64,000 bases of DNA, taken from Flavobacteriales bacterium. Lineage in GTDB: Bacteria > Bacteroidota > Bacteroidia > Flavobacteriales_F > PHOS-HE28. Positions 12,305 to 19,608 of this stretch are shown here, piece after piece. Numbering within the stretch: position 1 is the stretch's first letter; the number at the start of each line of letters is the position of its first letter. Location of the stretch: positions 573,728 to 637,727 of the forward strand of contig JADKAN010000001.1 in the NCBI GenBank assembly GCA_016719225.1, in the 5' to 3' direction. The notes below the pieces were generated by a model. That model did no database searches. It had not been told where the DNA came from and was given only the letters and a program-made list of their open reading frames with translations. Both the position numbers and the translations under genes were made by a program.

Positions 12305-12562
12305 GGGGATCTGCGTTGATGACCATTTGATACGCACCTGTAGTTGGAAGGTTTCGATCACGGGCATAGCTGTTATATCGCGCTTTCGGCACACAGATCC
12401 CGGGTAGGAATTTCGTTCAACTGAAGGCGCTCATTGGATGGCTCCAAGGTGCTCAGTCCGTGGTGGCCTTAATAGTAGGTGGTCGTTTTTCGCCAGCTTC
12501 TTCCTGTGATCAACCGAAAGGCCTTGACCAGCTATGCCTACCTTTCACGAAATTCAAGAAAA

Positions 12563-12781
12563 ATGACGACCAAAAGGGCACGCCTCCGGAAGGGTAACAA
12601 GAAACCCTCCACCAAGGCAAGTGCCACTGCCAGCACCCGGGCCAAGCGCAAAGCCACAACAGCTGCCCGCATGCAGGCCGAAGCCAAAAAGGCAGCTGAA
12701 TTGGTGAAAGCGGCTGCCAAACCTTCAACCTCCAACAAGACCGCCAAGAAAAAGACCGTGGCCAAGGTCGCTGGCAAGTAG
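12563..12781 (+). CDS. Histone H1-like Lys/Ala-rich DNA-binding protein
   Basis: 72 aa. Extremely basic low-complexity K/A/T-rich sequence (KRARLRKGNKKPSTKASATASTRAKRKATTAAR...KKKTVAKVAGK), typical of bacterial H1-like nucleoid proteins. Start set at MTTKRARL. Confidence 0.55.
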   Translation: MTTKRARLRKGNKKPSTKASATASTRAKRKATTAARMQAEAKKAAELVKAAAKPSTSNKTAKKKTVAKVAGK

Positions 12782-12826: not shown

Positions 12827-13186
12827 CTATCTGCTGGGCGTGAACAACCCCGGAACAGGGTTCTTCAAAACGACATAAGCCCGCTTCCATGGCGCATCGC
12901 CCAGCATGCGCCATTTGTGCGCTGTTCCCGTAGTGTCCAACGCCAGCAGTACATCGCCGGTGTTGAGGATGAACGTGCTTCCGTCCCGCATGGTGAATTC
13001 CAGCGTGCCGGAAAGCGTAAGAACGTATTGCGCCTCTGGTGCGGTGTGCCAATCAAGCACTCCATGTGGTTGTGTCTCCTTGAAATGGATGGAAACCACC
13101 GCATCCTCGTCCAGCTGCGCGATCATGCCTTCCTCGAAGTGTGAATCGCCGTCCGCTCCCGTGTAAAGCCTGATCGCCTTGATCAT
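12827..13186 (-). CDS. Cupin-domain protein
   Basis: ~120 aa. Small beta-barrel pattern HTAPEAQYVLTLSGTLEFTMRDGSTFILNTGDVLL typical of the cupin 2 fold. Start chosen at MIKAIRLY. Confidence 0.5.
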   Translation of the reverse strand: MIKAIRLYTGADGDSHFEEGMIAQLDEDAVVSIHFKETQPHGVLDWHTAPEAQYVLTLSGTLEFTMRDGSTFILNTGDVLLALDTTGTAHKWRMLGDAPWKRAYVVLKNPVPGLFTPSR

Positions 13187-13277
13187 GCTGCAAAGGTCGG
13201 CCATCCATTTCAGGATCTCGCTGAACCCGATAAGGCAACCAGGCGTATTACTAGCGGTATTCCCTATCCTGCCGACC

Positions 13278-14348
13278 ATGCGCTCCAGCGCCCATACCTT
13301 TCGCTCACCTTCAGTGGAAACCCGCAGTGATAACCATATCGCGTTCAAAAAACCGAACTTCCGGGTAGGGGACGGGCTTGCGCGATATCTGGTAAAGCAC
13401 GGTCGGAATACACCGATCCCCGTCGCCTACGAGGACTTGCTAAGGCACGATGGGTTGATGGCGCAGACGGGCCCGGACGGCAAGGAAACGTTGTGGACAA
13501 CGGTGATGCTGCGGCCTTCAGAAATGGAGGACATGCACGATCGTTTAGTGGAACTCTATCAGGTGTTGATCGGCTATGGCCGCGCATTGCCGTACCTGCG
13601 CGTGGCCAGCATCGATTTCTGCGGATATGGGAACAGCCAACCGTTCCGCATTAAGATCTTGAACCAACTTAACGACAACCACGACTACTACTACATCAAG
13701 AAAGCCGATGCCAGCCGGGTGTACGGCTTGGAGTTGGAGCATCTGCTCAGCCCCAATAAGATCAACTACATCTGCACCGGTACCACTTTGGTGGAGGAGC
13801 ACATCATCGGCGTGCCGGGCGATGATTTCATGAAGGACCCGTTGAAATATGGCGGCAATTTCAACCCGGTACGACTCTGCAAGGAATTCGTGAAATTCAA
13901 CGAGCGCTGCTTCGTGCGGCTGCTGGGCGATATGCGCGCCTACAATTTCGTCGTGGACGTCACGCAGGATTTCGATCAGGCGCAGTACCGCCTCCGGAGC
14001 ATCGATTTCGATCAGCAAAGCTTCGAGGGAAGACATCGCATCTACTTGCCGCAGTTCTATAAGGAGAACTTGGGGTACGTGGAGTATGCCCGGCGGTTCA
14101 TCAGCCCTGAAACAGCTGAGCAGTATGCCCAAGAGGAGCGTTCCCTTTTACGGAAGCGTTATCAGGTAGCTGCGGAGCAGGTGGAGGATCTGTTGGATGT
14201 GATGTCGAATGCCGAAATAAGCCTGCCGGAACATGTTGCCTTATTGCGGAGCGAACTGGCGAAATACCATGCGCATCCACCTTTCAGGAAGTGCTCCACC
14301 ATGGGAGAGATACTCACCCTCCAACTGAAGGTGATGTTGAGCTTGTAA
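13278..14348 (+). CDS. Hypothetical protein with protein-kinase-like (phosphotransferase) motifs
   Basis: 356 aa, no recognised family. Contains a YYIKK strand (a VAIK-like Lys), ELEHLL, a catalytic-loop-like GDMRAYNFVVD (D-x4-N) and a DFG-like SIDFD about 30 aa later. The start is ambiguous (13179 or 13278). Confidence 0.45.
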   Translation: MRSSAHTFRSPSVETRSDNHIAFKKPNFRVGDGLARYLVKHGRNTPIPVAYEDLLRHDGLMAQTGPDGKETLWTTVMLRPSEMEDMHDRLVELYQVLIGYGRALPYLRVASIDFCGYGNSQPFRIKILNQLNDNHDYYYIKKADASRVYGLELEHLLSPNKINYICTGTTLVEEHIIGVPGDDFMKDPLKYGGNFNPVRLCKEFVKFNERCFVRLLGDMRAYNFVVDVTQDFDQAQYRLRSIDFDQQSFEGRHRIYLPQFYKENLGYVEYARRFISPETAEQYAQEERSLLRKRYQVAAEQVEDLLDVMSNAEISLPEHVALLRSELAKYHAHPPFRKCSTMGEILTLQLKVMLSL

Positions 14349-15453: not shown

Positions 15454-16125
15454 TCAACGGGCGCCAAAAATGGACGTACCTACACGGACCATCGTGGAAC
15501 CGGCCGCCAATGCTTGGTCCAGATCGCCGCTCATGCCCATCGAGAGTTCCGTGAACTGCGCCAAATAGGGCAAGTGAAGCGCGTTGATCTGCCGTTGCAG
15601 TGCCGCCAGCCCGTTGAATTCGGCCTCAACTTGCGCGTTGTCTTCCGTATTGGTGGCCATGCCCATCAATCCGCGGAAACACAAGTTCATCCAATGTTCT
15701 GTATGCGATTCCGACAATAATGGCAGCACTTCGTCATTGGAAAAGCCATGCTTGGTCTCCTCCTGTGCGATGTGGACCTGCAGGAGAATGTCGATCATGC
15801 GCCCAGCTTGTGCTGCGCGCTTATCCAACTCATCCAAAAGCGCACGGCTATCCACGCCGTGGACAAGATGCACGAAGGGTGCGAGGTATTTCACCTTGTT
15901 CGTCTGCAGGTGCCCTATGAAATGCCAACGGATGTCTTCGGGCAAAAGCGGCTGTTTTTCGCGCAGCTCCTGGGGGTAGTTCTCGCCGAAATCCCGGTGG
16001 CCCAGGTCGTAAAGTGCCTTGATCTCCTCAACGGTCCGCTTCTTGCTTACTGCCACTAGTAATACTCCGGATGGCAGGCCGTCCTTGACCTTGCGGAAGC
16101 GCTGCGCTAAGCCCTCCTTGTCCAT
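15454..16125 (-). CDS. yggS: YggS-family pyridoxal-phosphate homeostasis protein
   Basis: LVAVSKKRTVEEIKALYDLGHRDFGENYPQEL and HFIGHLQTNKVKY are canonical YggS/PROSC blocks. Its start overlaps the stop of the upstream DUF1015 gene. Confidence 0.85.
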   Translation of the reverse strand: MDKEGLAQRFRKVKDGLPSGVLLVAVSKKRTVEEIKALYDLGHRDFGENYPQELREKQPLLPEDIRWHFIGHLQTNKVKYLAPFVHLVHGVDSRALLDELDKRAAQAGRMIDILLQVHIAQEETKHGFSNDEVLPLLSESHTEHWMNLCFRGLMGMATNTEDNAQVEAEFNGLAALQRQINALHLPYLAQFTELSMGMSGDLDQALAAGSTMVRVGTSIFGAR

Positions 16126-17345
16126 CAATTGTCCTCCAAGGAGTAGATGGTGAGCCCGCTGCGCAACTTGGGTTCCACCCACGTGGTCTTGGGTGGCATC
16201 AGTCCAAGGTTGTCCGCAACAGCCGCAAGGCTTGCGAAGGGTATGGCGCAGAGGTTGAAGGCCACATCGGCTTTGCCGGTGTCCACCAGCTTGTCCAGTG
16301 CGGCCAACGGATCAGTGCCGGGAATGAAGCGGATACGCGGGTCGGTGCGTAGATCCATGACACCCAGTATCGGGCCCAACACCGCAGCGCTGAGTACGGA
16401 GGCATCCAACGCTTCGGTCACATCCGTACCCATGGGTTTGGGCAATTCAAGCCGGTACCAGCCGCTTTGCGTGCGTACCTGTACATGTCCTGCGGGAGCG
16501 CAACGTTCTGGACCGTCGGGGAGTACCGTCAATGTCCCTGTTCTGCCAAGTGCTTCCAAGAATGAAGCAGGGGAGTGACCGTTCAGGCCCGATACCGCGC
16601 GGTCGAAATTGAAGATGTGAAGCTGGTTGTGCGGTACCAAGTAGGCCAAGCACCACGCCTTTGGGTCTTCGCCTTTCGCACCAGAAGCCTTGGCCAGGCG
16701 GGCACTGCTGGCACTGCGGTGGTGACCGTCGGCGATGTAGAGTGCGTCCAACGCCCGGAAATGGTCGGCGAGCGCGTCGATCTCCGCGGGCTCATCGATC
16801 TTCCAGAAACGGTGGCGGATCCGATCGGTGGTGCAGAAGTCGTAGAGCACAGGCTTTACCGATAATCCGTGGAGGTGCTTTTCCAGAACAGGAGGGCCGG
16901 GTATCGCGAGCAATACCGGTTCGGCGTTGATCCCCGTGTGCTCGAGGTATTCGGTGAAGATCGCCTCCCGTGCCGTGAGCGTCTGCTCGTGGACCTTGAT
17001 CCGGCCTTCGACATAGTCGGCGACACTGACGGCACCGATCAAACCCATCGAAGTGAATGCTGCACAACTTTGCTCATAGAGATAGAAGGCCGGCCGTTCC
17101 TCACGCAGCAGGATACCTTCATGGGTGAACTCTTCGAATTTGTGCCGGACACCATCGAAATGCTCAGCACGCGTCAAGCCCACCCGATCGTGGTCCGCAT
17201 GGACGATGTGTAGGAAGGAGTAGGGATTGCCAGCCAATTTCTCGCGGAGCTCACCCGGTGTATACGTCAGGAAAGAACGTGATCCCACGAGGTGCGCCGT
17301 ATGGGGCGCGGGCCGCCATGCCCGAAAGGGCCGTACCCTGATCAT
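16125..17345 (-). CDS. DUF1015-family protein (conserved, function unknown)
   Basis: 406 aa. N-terminus MIRVRPFRAWRP and overall pattern match the DUF1015 family. Translationally coupled to serA upstream and yggS downstream. Confidence 0.6.
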   Translation of the reverse strand: MIRVRPFRAWRPAPHTAHLVGSRSFLTYTPGELREKLAGNPYSFLHIVHADHDRVGLTRAEHFDGVRHKFEEFTHEGILLREERPAFYLYEQSCAAFTSMGLIGAVSVADYVEGRIKVHEQTLTAREAIFTEYLEHTGINAEPVLLAIPGPPVLEKHLHGLSVKPVLYDFCTTDRIRHRFWKIDEPAEIDALADHFRALDALYIADGHHRSASSARLAKASGAKGEDPKAWCLAYLVPHNQLHIFNFDRAVSGLNGHSPASFLEALGRTGTLTVLPDGPERCAPAGHVQVRTQSGWYRLELPKPMGTDVTEALDASVLSAAVLGPILGVMDLRTDPRIRFIPGTDPLAALDKLVDTGKADVAFNLCAIPFASLAAVADNLGLMPPKTTWVEPKLRSGLTIYSLEDN

Positions 17346-18322
17346 CCGCGTCCCACGGTCACTTCATCGCGCCAAGCCGAAAGGATATCCACCAGCTCAT
17401 CGCCGATGCGCTCCTGGGCTTCCATGGTGGCCGCCCCGATGTGCGGGCTAAGGCTCACGTTGGGGTGCGCCAGCAGGTCCGCGCGGGGAGTAGGCTCGTT
17501 CTCGAAAACGTCCAATGCGGCCGCTTTCACCTTTCCGGAATTCAGCGCTTTCAGCAGCTCCTCTTCGTCCAAAGAATTGCCGCGGGCCGTGTTCACGATC
17601 AGCATGCCCTTTTTCATCTGCGCGAATTCCTTCGCACCCAACAAGGGGGTGCCGTCATCCGTTGCAGGTACGTGCAGGCTGATGGCATCGCAAGCATTCA
17701 ACAGTTCCTCCATGGGCACCATCTTGATCCCAACGCGGACCGTGTCCCCGTTCAATTGCACCTCGATGTGGTCCACTGTGGAGCTACGGTCATAGTAGAG
17801 CACTTTCATGCCGTTCCCGATGGCGTAGCGTGCCACCCATTTGCCGATGCGCCCGAAGCCAACGATACCCAGGGTCTTTCCGCGCAGCTCGGCGCCTTTG
17901 CCGTAGCTCTTCTTCATTTCCTTGAAGCAAGCGGCGTCGTGCCCTTCAACGCACATGCGGCGGTTCGCCTTGTAGAGGTCGCGGGTCATGCTGAAGAGAT
18001 GCGCCATCACCAGTTCCGCAACACTGATGCTGCTGCTTGCAGGCGTGTTCACCACCCGAAGACCTTTCTTCCGTGCATAAGCCACGTCGATGTTGTCCAT
18101 GCCAACGCCGCCGCGCGCGATCAACTTCAACCCGGGGCAGGTGTCAATGAGGTCCTTGCGCACTTTGGTGGCGCTGCGGACCAACAAGGCGTCCACCTTT
18201 TCGGTATTGATGTAAGCCGCCAATTCTTCCTGTGGCACAAAATCCACCGTGACGGTGAAGCCTTGTTCCTTCAGGGCTTCCTGTGCCGGTGCCGAAATTC
18301 CGTCGTTCGCGTGTACGCGCAT
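17342..18322 (-). CDS. serA: D-3-phosphoglycerate dehydrogenase (short form, D-isomer 2-hydroxyacid dehydrogenase family)
   Basis: GxGxxG NAD motif (GIVGFGRIGKWVARYA). Catalytic R/E/H pattern of 2-hydroxyacid dehydrogenases (NTARGNSLDEEEL...SPHIGAAT). Lies directly downstream of serC. Confidence 0.8.
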   Translation of the reverse strand: MRVHANDGISAPAQEALKEQGFTVTVDFVPQEELAAYINTEKVDALLVRSATKVRKDLIDTCPGLKLIARGGVGMDNIDVAYARKKGLRVVNTPASSSISVAELVMAHLFSMTRDLYKANRRMCVEGHDAACFKEMKKSYGKGAELRGKTLGIVGFGRIGKWVARYAIGNGMKVLYYDRSSTVDHIEVQLNGDTVRVGIKMVPMEELLNACDAISLHVPATDDGTPLLGAKEFAQMKKGMLIVNTARGNSLDEEELLKALNSGKVKAAALDVFENEPTPRADLLAHPNVSLSPHIGAATMEAQERIGDELVDILSAWRDEVTVGRG

Positions 18323-18324
18323 GT

Positions 18325-19395
18325 TCAACCGTTCTTTTTTGCGAATTCCTCCATCACTTCCGTCAAGGCTTTTACGCTTTCCAAAGGCAATGCGTTGTAC
18401 ATGCTTGCCCGGTAGCCGCCTACGCTGCGGTGCCCGCGAATGCCGTTGATACCGGCCTCTTTCCACATGGCATCGAAGGCGGGTTCCAAGGCCGCGTCGT
18501 TCAGCACGAAGGTGGGATTCATGTCACTGCGGTCCTCTTTGGCCGTGGTGCCATTGAAGAGGGGCAGGCGGTCGATCGTGCCGTACATCAGTTCGGCTTT
18601 CGCAGCATTGCGCTTGGCGATCTCCGCGATGCCGCCGATGCGCTTCATCCATTCCAGCGTGAGCATGATGACGTAGATCGGGAACACGGGCGGGGTATTG
18701 TACATGCTGTCCTTCGCCGCGTGGTTGGCCAGGTCCATCATGGGGCTCAGCTTCTTGCCCGTTTTGCCAAGGGTGGCCGGGTCGAAAAGGTACATGGTAG
18801 CGCCCGCAGGGCCCATGTTCTTCTGTGCACCGGCATAGATCAAGGCGAAGTCCTTCACGTTCACAGGACGGCTGAAGATGTCGCTGCTCATGTCGCAGAT
18901 CATCGGCACCGGGCTTTCCGGGAACTGCTTGAACTGCGTGCCGAAAATGGTGTTGTTGCTGGTAAAGTGGAAGTAATCCGCGTCACTCGGGATGGTGAAA
19001 CCCTTCGGGATGTAGCTGAAGTTCTTGTCCTCGCTGCTCGCCACCACCTCTGCGCCACCGGCCAGTTTGGCCTCCTTGATCGCCCGCGTGGACCATTCAC
19101 CGGTGTTGACGTAGGCCCCTTTGCCGCCGGGCTTCATGTAGTTCTGTGGTACCAAGTGGAAACCCATACTGGCTCCGCCGCCCAAGAACACGGTTTGATA
19201 GTGCGCCGGTGCTCCCAAAAGCTCTTTCACCAGTTCGCGGGACTTCAACATCACCGCCTCGAAAGGCTTGCTGCGGTGGCTTATTTCCAAAATACTGAGT
19301 CCGCTGCCCTCAAAATCCAGCACGGCATCCGCTGCCTTCTGGAACACCTCTTGCGGAAGAATGCATGGACCTGCACTGAAATTATGGACTTTCAT
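18325..19395 (-). CDS. serC: Phosphoserine aminotransferase
   Basis: MKVHNFSAGPCILPQEVFQKAA N-terminus is the SerC signature. Class-V aminotransferase PLP-Lys region follows. Confidence 0.9.
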   Translation of the reverse strand: MKVHNFSAGPCILPQEVFQKAADAVLDFEGSGLSILEISHRSKPFEAVMLKSRELVKELLGAPAHYQTVFLGGGASMGFHLVPQNYMKPGGKGAYVNTGEWSTRAIKEAKLAGGAEVVASSEDKNFSYIPKGFTIPSDADYFHFTSNNTIFGTQFKQFPESPVPMICDMSSDIFSRPVNVKDFALIYAGAQKNMGPAGATMYLFDPATLGKTGKKLSPMMDLANHAAKDSMYNTPPVFPIYVIMLTLEWMKRIGGIAEIAKRNAAKAELMYGTIDRLPLFNGTTAKEDRSDMNPTFVLNDAALEPAFDAMWKEAGINGIRGHRSVGGYRASMYNALPLESVKALTEVMEEFAKKNG

Positions 19396-19608
19396 CTTGG
19401 TGTCTGTAGGCATCGGGACGGGATTTTGTGGCCGCGAAGGTAATGGATCAGGTTGCGCGATGTTCGGAGCGCACGACCACTTGCGATCGCTGTCAGTCTT
19501 TATCGCGGTAAGGCATTGCTCAAGAACCAATGTGTGCTTGAGTGAAGGCTGGTAAGGGTCGGGCCGAAATGATCCGTCGATCCCATTCGTGACGGTACAA
19601 ACAGAGCT

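Follow-up and report, generated by a model that had tools for sequence, protein, structure and literature searches.

The 64,000-nucleotide stretch of DNA analyzed here, hereafter the window (contig JADKAN010000001.1, positions 573,728 to 637,727, of Flavobacteriales bacterium assembly GCA_016719225.1), carries at 13278-14348 on the forward strand an open reading frame (ORF) that starts with ATG and comprises 356 codons and a stop codon in the ORF listing of the window. Its flanks encode phosphoenolpyruvate (PEP) synthase, a small cupin read from the opposite strand, an outer-membrane protein of the DUF6089 family, YggS, DUF1015, SerA and SerC. An earlier reading of the letters alone, the original prediction, had described its product as a 356-residue hypothetical protein and a possible atypical kinase. 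The ORF is present as described, and its product is identical to NCBI protein P0001 from a Flavobacteriales metagenome-assembled genome (MAG), with 100% identity and coverage and equal length. The mechanically delimited ORF opens farther 5′, at TTG 13179 (+), and the stop codon occupies 14346-14348. The product has no hydrophobic segment in its 356 residues and is a soluble, stand-alone single-domain protein. We propose, with a probability of roughly 0.7, that it is a soluble cytoplasmic ATP-dependent phosphotransferase of the protein-kinase-like superfamily (PKL), predicted to be catalytically competent, with a catalytic domain nearest those of PI3K, PI4K and PIKK enzymes.

The motifs that first suggested a kinase are all found in the protein, five out of five: YYIKK (residues 138-142), ELEHLL (152-157), LVEEHIIG (171-178), LLGDMRAYNFVVD (215-227) and SIDFD (241-245). 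Their conservation was assessed in a diverse set of 28 homologs that are 26-77% identical to the window protein. Seventeen columns are invariant in this set (Y51, P122, K141, D144, G150, E173, G178, L215, G217, D218, M219, N223, D243, F244, D245, Q246 and L323), and a further group is at least 90% conserved (R147, E152, E154, Q247, E250, G251, Y256, P258 and N264). In an alignment of 42 close members, 96 columns are invariant, and K141, D144, D218, N223, D243 and D245 are again among them. Conservation of the catalytic Lys, Asp and Asn had been named as a check on the kinase reading; K141, D218 and N223, together with the DFG-like D243, never vary down to 26% identity, so a refutation on grounds of conservation fails. 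In all 28 sequences the ATP-binding Lys, the catalytic Asp and Asn and the Mg-binding Asp follow one another in the order expected of the PKL superfamily. Five of the invariant residues (L215, G217, D218, M219 and N223) belong to the catalytic loop, which lines up with the G-x-G-D-R-H-x-x-N of PI3Ks. Farther upstream, the loop C115-R124, in which P122 is invariant and N119, F123 and R124 are at least 90% conserved, would occupy the position of the glycine-rich or P-loop hairpin.

Structure prediction was the second check that had been proposed, and it returned a kinase fold. The close alignment gave a first AlphaFold2 model of moderate quality, with a predicted local distance difference test score (pLDDT) of 76.8 and a predicted template modeling score (pTM) of 0.77. 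The second model (mc965a4a370ed), for which the diverse alignment was used, has high confidence (pLDDT 90.2, pTM 0.87), with disorder in residues 1-22 only. In this model the N-lobe sheet consists of strands 107-115, 123-129 and 134-142 and is followed by an alphaC-like helix (145-157), strands 164-174 leading into the hinge, and a long helix (197-214) that ends at the catalytic loop. On the C-lobe side, a hairpin (224-241) ends in the DFD motif and precedes the activation loop and five C-terminal helices. The order of secondary structure is that of a kinase, with a beta-rich N-lobe, a hinge and a helical C-lobe; a refutation based on fold fails as well.

Ranked by structural similarity in Z units, the closest structures to the second model are PI3K-alpha (14.0), Tel1 (13.7), Vps34 (13.6), PI4KIII-beta (13.3), mTOR (13.2), PI4KA (13.0) and SMG1 (12.5). 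Farther away lie PI4KII-alpha (10.7), actin-fragmin kinase and CotH (10.1 each), MavQ (9.2) and CtkA (9.0), and farthest are HipA (8.6), Bud32 and WaaP (both 8.5) and the APHs (about 7.5). The weaker first model reproduces this order. All 50 matches listed by Foldseek are kinases, but none reaches an E of 0.001. The modeled structure therefore supports assignment to the protein-kinase-like fold, with a catalytic domain nearest the PI3K/PI4K/PIKK type, and together with the invariant catalytic residues it favors the atypical kinase interpretation. The suggestion of an APH- or CotH-like protein was right about the kinase-like fold and wrong about the nearest relative, as CotH and the APHs score 10.1 and about 7.5 against 14.0; neither a profile match to these families nor a closest structure among them was found.

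This ranking also bears on a small-molecule or envelope-sugar kinase resembling WaaP, KdkA or the APH/choline kinase group, which would act, for example, on a sugar of the lipopolysaccharide (LPS) core or on a soluble metabolite. The window protein shares with the APH/choline kinase group the general PKL fold and the logic of D-x4-N followed by a Mg-binding Asp. However, the WaaP, KdkA and APH families are 5-6 Z units farther in structure than PI3K and PI4K, no linkage to LPS or sugar-metabolism genes is seen, and a literature search for a Bacteroidota Kdo kinase returned nothing usable. We regard such an enzyme as rather unlikely.

Turning to sequence, the relation to PI3K and PI4K is visible in register and not in score. 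Searches of Pfam, NCBIfam, PADLOC and PDB sequences with the protein and with family profiles (phmmer, hmmsearch) gave only noise, such as Spin-Ssty, ferritin and desmoglein, which bears out the earlier remark that no known family signature is present. Submitted singly to hmmscan, the 28 members matched no kinase family up to E = 1. No significant match was found to the PF00454 profile (PI3K/PI4K catalytic domain) or to PI3Ka, for which one of the 28 members reached E = 0.089, and about 100 residues precede the N-lobe where a helical (PIK) or FAT domain was sought and not found. Reference sequences of human Vps34 (634-887), PI3K-gamma and PI4K2A were verified against PDB chains before comparison, and the family profile was then aligned with hhalign to Vps34, to a profile combining PI3K-gamma and Vps34, and to PI4K2A, with E values in the range 0.14-0.23.

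At these non-significant E values the alignments to PI3Ks keep the expected register over 87-133 columns. LLGDMRAYN of the window protein is paired with GxGDRHxDN of the PI3K family, IDFDQQ with IDFGx, GRHRIYLPQFYKEN with the Vps34 activation loop GRDPKPLPPPMKLN, and IS.PEHV..L..EL with LTSKEDIEYIRDAL of the PI3K family, while LPQFYKEN lines up with the end of the PI3K activation loop. Against PI4K2A, the catalytic motifs were unmatched and only a C-lobe helix aligned. Vps34 and PI3K-gamma both carry FKHGDDLRQD, and the K141-x-x-D144-x-x-R147 of the window protein, read from the sequences, echoes the PI3K hallmark K-x-G-D-D-L-R-Q-D at its K, D and R. Only the skeletons of the PI3K signatures KxGDDLRQD, GxGDRHxxN and hIDFG are present, as K141..D144..R147, G217-D-M-R-x-x-N223 and I-D243-F-D, which align in register at a non-significant score. 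In summary, the 356-residue protein appears to work like a PI3K/PI4K-type kinase domain, yet it fails the PF00454 sequence test and lacks accessory domains.

Although uncharacterized, the family had received a name not long before this analysis. A preprint dated 24 Sep 2026, which surveyed kinase-like proteins by structure, introduced a family called SEAE1 after WP_147203046.1 of Segetibacter aerophilus (Chitinophagaceae), counted 7,867 homologs, of which 39% are from Bacteroidota and 0.4% from Archaea, and described it as PI3K-like in structure and non-secreted (bioRxiv 10.64898/2026.09.18.752743). The AlphaFold 3 (AF3) model of SEAE1 with ATP and two Mg2+ has K140, R146, D216, N221, D241 and D243 in its active site, where an R146-D243 salt bridge takes over from the customary Lys-Glu pair (bioRxiv 10.64898/2026.09.18.752743). 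The corresponding residues of the window protein are K141, R147, D218, N223, D243 and D245. Its spacing is that of SEAE1, save for a single additional residue separating the Lys from the catalytic Asp, and the exact SEAE1 numbering occurs in 16 family members, one of them a Ferruginibacter protein. The window protein very probably belongs to the SEAE1 family. The ion pair that the original prediction assumed, between the Lys of YYIKK and the Glu of ELEHLL, would, going by the SEAE1 model, give way to an Arg-Asp pair, with R147 and D245 as the equivalents here.

Homology, together with the AF3 model that the preprint gives for a family member, assigns roles to these residues and leads to a candidate mechanism. 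With its catalytic residues intact, the protein is taken to be an active ATP-dependent phosphotransferase. ATP would bind between the beta-sheet N-lobe and the helical C-lobe, where K141 and R147 would grip the alpha and beta phosphates, R147 pairing with D245 as well. N223 and D243 would hold two Mg2+ ions, D218 would act as the base that takes a proton from the acceptor hydroxyl, and the activation loop (residues 245-264) would place the acceptor. This acceptor may be one fixed non-protein molecule common to environmental Bacteroidota, perhaps a lipid head group or an envelope precursor. With less support, we infer that it is probably an anionic or membrane-linked non-protein molecule and that a protein acceptor is less likely, because the activation loop is nearly invariant with conserved basic residues and no partner genes or regulatory domains accompany the gene.

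Several points weigh against this interpretation. The 356-residue protein has no hmmscan match up to E = 10, hhalign of the family profile to Vps34 or to the Vps34 plus PI3K-gamma profile gives a non-significant E of about 0.2, and the preprint's own HHpred comparison of SEAE1 to PF00454 is non-significant at E = 250 (bioRxiv 10.64898/2026.09.18.752743). The identity with SEAE1 is drawn from residue pattern, taxonomy and neighbors, by way of the preprint's description of WP_147203046.1. The preference for a non-protein acceptor comes solely from activation-loop conservation and absent partner genes. According to the literature, inositol-lipid genes occur mainly in host-associated Bacteroidales with a patchy distribution, whereas the family is found in environmental orders, so phosphatidylinositol fits poorly as the acceptor. 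Finally, the nearest structures are evenly divided, with PI3K and PI4K on the lipid-kinase side and Tel1, mTOR and SMG1 on the protein-kinase side, and the fold therefore leaves the class of acceptor undecided.

A rival reading is a Ser/Thr (or Tyr) protein kinase, comparable to the PIKKs, actin-fragmin kinase, CotH, HipA or CtkA, that would phosphorylate one conserved Bacteroidota protein as a regulatory switch. Yet no conserved partner, substrate or phosphatase gene adjoins the family gene in 81 loci, and regulatory or docking domains were not found. Furthermore, the surroundings of the active site and the activation loop are near-invariant across classes, which would be usual for a fixed small substrate. 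A protein kinase is thus possible but, in our judgment, unlikely.

A phosphoinositide kinase with bacterial phosphatidylinositol or inositol-phosphoceramide as its specific substrate is the reading favored by the preprint, which proposed that SEAE1 is a lipid kinase and predicted its role from a neighboring PAP2 phosphatase gene found in Segetibacter only, in 4 of 20 genomes (bioRxiv 10.64898/2026.09.18.752743). Vps34, PI3K-alpha and PI4KIII are indeed among the closest structures, the activation loop lines up with that of Vps34, and the PAP2 lipid phosphatase does lie near SEAE1 in some Segetibacter genomes (bioRxiv 10.64898/2026.09.18.752743). This "PAP2-PIK module" does not extend beyond that genus, however. 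A scan of the window genes found no PAP2 phosphatase, SmpB or AccD near the gene, and PAP2 does not figure in the 25 Pfam families most frequent among 126 flanking genes, the top 25 of 101 neighbor families at the sampled loci. Moreover, inositol-lipid synthesis genes are reported in the literature mainly from host-associated Bacteroides, Prevotella and Parabacteroides and do not follow the phylogeny, and the kinase family is spread through environmental Flavobacteriales, Cytophagales and Chitinophagales. We consider a phosphoinositide substrate improbable.

The protein had been called an orphan, a label that does not hold: at least 8,000 clusters at 90% identity match it in a word-indexed search of 5.8 billion proteins, and scanning a single genome for each species turned up at least 600 loci with a family gene. 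The best 120 matches are 62-100% identical to the window protein, and none of the 120 has a Pfam domain. We fetched 80 of the species-representative loci for inspection; they include Flavobacteriales, Cytophagales (Hymenobacter, Pontibacter, Algoriphagus, Echinicola and Roseivirga), Chitinophagales and Saprospiraceae, and their proteins are 45-67% identical to the window protein with one exception at 85%. Further searches add Ferruginibacter with other Chitinophagaceae, as well as Polaribacter, Flavobacterium, Eudoraea and Allomuricauda. When 1.84 billion representatives at 50% identity were searched exhaustively with an HMMER profile, 811 sequences were returned, mostly fragments and from this family only, and none of the 150 matches listed of these 811 connects it with a known family. 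This is a large but compact family. Across the classes of the Bacteroidota its members are 47-50% identical, which indicates an important and unchanging job, and the activation loop is strongly conserved inside the phylum. The distribution shows phylum-wide vertical inheritance of a stand-alone chromosomal gene, with no plasmid or phage copies among 72,556 plasmids and 50,697 phage records. Domain fusions are uninformative: one member (P0122, metagenomic, 491 residues) has an N-terminal Zn_ribbon_TFIIB domain (E = 1.5e-10), and there is one probable chimera besides.

Five of the fetched loci (L028, L080, L010, L060 and L065) are labeled as non-Bacteroidota. Two of them, from "Limnohabitans" and "Citrobacter" MAG contigs (L028 and L080), are syntenic with Algoriphagus and Chitinophagaceae loci, with most shared neighbors at 87-91% protein identity; we therefore rejected an origin of these copies in Limnohabitans or Citrobacter and attribute them to binning errors. 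A contig labeled "Henriciella pelagia" measures 489,077 bp, nearly equal to the 489,083 bp of a Flavobacteriales contig. Mislabeled contigs of this kind may inflate reports of a distribution over many phyla. Named members are annotated as "hypothetical" or "uncharacterized" with two stray exceptions, an automatic "RNA ligase" label, for which no supporting evidence is given, on the UniRef entry for P0286 (Lutibacter aestuarii) and a "predicted transcriptional regulator" label (JGI) on a family fragment.

At 26% identity to the window protein, P0263/P0334 is the full-length member that diverges most, and it lies on four archaeal contigs of low GC content (33%). It retains the Lys, GDMHSYN and IDFDQ and lacks both the GNSQPF loop and the activation-loop motif of the Bacteroidota. 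Its gene lies downstream of those for KEOPS Bud32 (TIGR03724, 197.8 bits) and archaeal ribosomal protein S3Ae, directly after Bud32 and on the same strand as it, and has GyrB upstream. The nearest relatives of P0263 are Flavobacteriaceae proteins at about 30% identity, and the archaeal copy may be a transfer. That this sole archaeal member directly follows Bud32 would suit a kinase fold with another chemistry, such as AMPylation as in SelO or an ATPase as in Bud32, or a non-catalytic scaffold. Repurposing of the PKL fold is known, and the "RNA ligase" name points the same way, though without evidence behind it. On the other hand, the phosphotransfer set (Lys, catalytic Asp, Asn and DFG-like Asp) is invariant, which argues against a scaffold, and the preprint's AF3 model holds ATP in the canonical orientation (bioRxiv 10.64898/2026.09.18.752743). 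Such a departure from phosphotransfer seems very improbable.

The surroundings of the gene had been described as an island of non-housekeeping genes. This picture did not survive: the guanine-cytosine (GC) content of 0.553 at 12-14 kb is ordinary for a window that ranges over 0.53-0.61, the flanks are housekeeping genes, and copies on plasmids or phages are absent. On the same grounds we rejected an origin from a mobile element. Clustering of neighboring genes gave no cluster common to more than 6 of 81 loci, and in Pfam counts on the 126 flanking genes the commonest neighbor family occurs 6 times, which reflects genus-level synteny. Without a conserved neighbor in these 81 loci, context offers no functional lead. 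Sporadic neighbors across the sampled loci include a periplasmic binding protein and a class II fructose-bisphosphate aldolase. At one Chitinophagaceae locus a PcrB-type gene (geranylgeranylglyceryl-phosphate synthase-like) lies directly upstream of the family member on the same strand; it was rejected as a partner since it occurs at this single locus and is outside the commonest neighbor families.

Nearer to the gene, the listed TTG start of the divergent cupin ORF would have it overlap the 5′ end of the kinase gene; the real start of the cupin is likely ATG 13186 (MIKAIRLYTG...), leaving a divergent intergenic region of 91 bp. A small protein whose C-terminal segment resembles a type IX secretion system (T9SS) sorting domain and a Lys/Ala-rich "H1-like" protein of 100 residues each lack a Pfam match at E ≤ 0.001. 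On the other side, SerC-like aminotransferase, SerA-like dehydrogenase, DUF1015 (406 residues, E = 1.4e-70) and YggS-like pyridoxal phosphate (PLP)-binding proteins are encoded in a same-strand run. The uncharacterized DUF1015 ORF, between the serine-biosynthesis genes and YggS, overlaps both of its neighbors, which suggests co-transcription. Coordinates are collected in Table 1.

Table 1. Features of the kinase-like gene and its surroundings, with related genes on other contigs. Unprefixed coordinates refer to the window.
Feature	Coordinates	Strand	Evidence
Coding sequence of the proposed PI3K/PI4K-like atypical kinase (356 residues), stop included	13278..14348	+	ORF listing, P0001 identity, at least 8,000 homologs
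Residues 1-22, N-terminal tail, predicted disordered, non-conserved	13278..13343	+	pLDDT <50 in both models; absent or variable in most homologs
Residues 23-100, N-terminal sub-domain against the N-lobe; helices 32-40 and 80-97, hairpin 59-77, invariant Y51	13344..13577	+	Secondary structure of second model, conservation
C115-R124 (CGYGNSQPFR), loop between strands 107-115 and 123-129	13620..13649	+	Conservation, model
YYIKKADASR (138-147), beta3 strand and start of alphaC-like helix, predicted ATP-binding Lys K141	13689..13718	+	Invariance, strand 134-142, helix 145-157, equivalents in SEAE1 AF3 model
GLELEHLL (150-157), alphaC-equivalent helix with invariant G150 and with E152 and E154 conserved to at least 90%	13725..13748	+	Conservation, model
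TLVEEHIIGVPGD (170-182), beta5 strand and inter-lobe hinge; E173 and G178 invariant	13785..13823	+	Conservation, model
Residues 202-227, alphaE-like helix, then predicted catalytic loop L-L-G-D218-M-R-x-x-N223	13881..13958	+	Invariance, hhalign register, SEAE1 D216 and N221
Residues 237-264, strand, I-D243-F-D245-Q, predicted activation loop Q-S-F-E-G-R-H-R-I-Y-L-P-Q-F-Y-K-E-N	13986..14069	+	Conservation, alignment to Vps34
Residues 265-356, extension of the C-lobe made up entirely of helices (five), with invariant L323 and with L327 and M342 conserved to at least 90%	14070..14345	+	
Small protein with T9SS-like C-terminal segment	11900..12394	-	
"H1-like" protein	12479..12781	+	
Cupin ORF, listed TTG start	12827..13348	-	
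Run of SerC-like, SerA-like, DUF1015 and YggS-like genes	15454..19530	-	
PcrB-type gene, Chitinophagaceae locus	L081:4961-5716		
P0263/P0334 gene on archaeal contig, GC 33%	L083:1844-2869		
P0263/P0334 gene on archaeal contig, GC 33%	L084:1903-2928		
P0263/P0334 gene on archaeal contig, GC 33%	L086:4987-6012		
P0263/P0334 gene on archaeal contig, GC 33%	L087:804-1829		

PI3K/PI4K-type kinases are seen as eukaryotic, and the known bacterial ones are effectors that intracellular pathogens secrete. Here, a PI3K/PI4K-like catalytic architecture is predicted in a non-secreted, chromosomal, single-domain bacterial protein. Identifying its acceptor would close a gap in the physiology of Bacteroidota, be it on the lipid, the envelope or the regulatory side, and could bear on the origin of the eukaryotic lipid-kinase family. 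More speculatively, the family might be a prokaryotic branch of the PI3K/PI4K/PIKK lineage, inherited vertically in the Bacteroidota with at least one archaeal member, that phosphorylates an unrecognized Bacteroidota membrane lipid or envelope precursor. We hold this to be doubtful; if true, a housekeeping bacterial lipid-kinase step would be missing from current pathway maps, and the eukaryotic phosphoinositide kinases would have in this family a candidate relative of their ancestor. There is no database model for the family, and a curated profile would give a name to thousands of "hypothetical proteins".

Comparison with known systems places the protein at some distance from the effector and atypical kinases. 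Type II PI4-kinase, actin-fragmin kinase, CotH, MavQ, CtkA and HipA rank 3-5 Z units below PI3K, PI4KIII and the PIKKs; PF08757, PF07804 and PF09192 have no Pfam matches in the window protein or in the members scanned; and no toxin-antitoxin or secretion context is seen around the gene. From the PI3K/PI4K/PIKK enzymes themselves (PF00454: Vps34, p110, PI4KIII, mTOR and ATM/Tel1), it differs in having no significant sequence match and in belonging to a family of about 340 residues that lacks their helical (PIK), C2, FAT and FATC domains. The catalytic loop of the family has Met followed by Arg or His where PI3Ks have Arg-His, DFD replaces the DFG of PI3Ks, and 20 residues separate the Asn from the DFG-like Asp as opposed to 13 in PI3Ks. 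Unlike these enzymes, the window protein is prokaryotic, chromosomal and not an effector.

The closest comparison is with SEAE1. The window protein differs in its origin, a Flavobacteriales MAG, and shares about 47% identity with members of the Chitinophagaceae type. It resembles SEAE1 in its PI3K-like structural neighbors, its non-secreted location and its homologs, mainly of Bacteroidota with a few archaeal ones, and the sporadic gene neighbors of the two are alike, with substrate-binding proteins and fructose-bisphosphate aldolase occurring near both.

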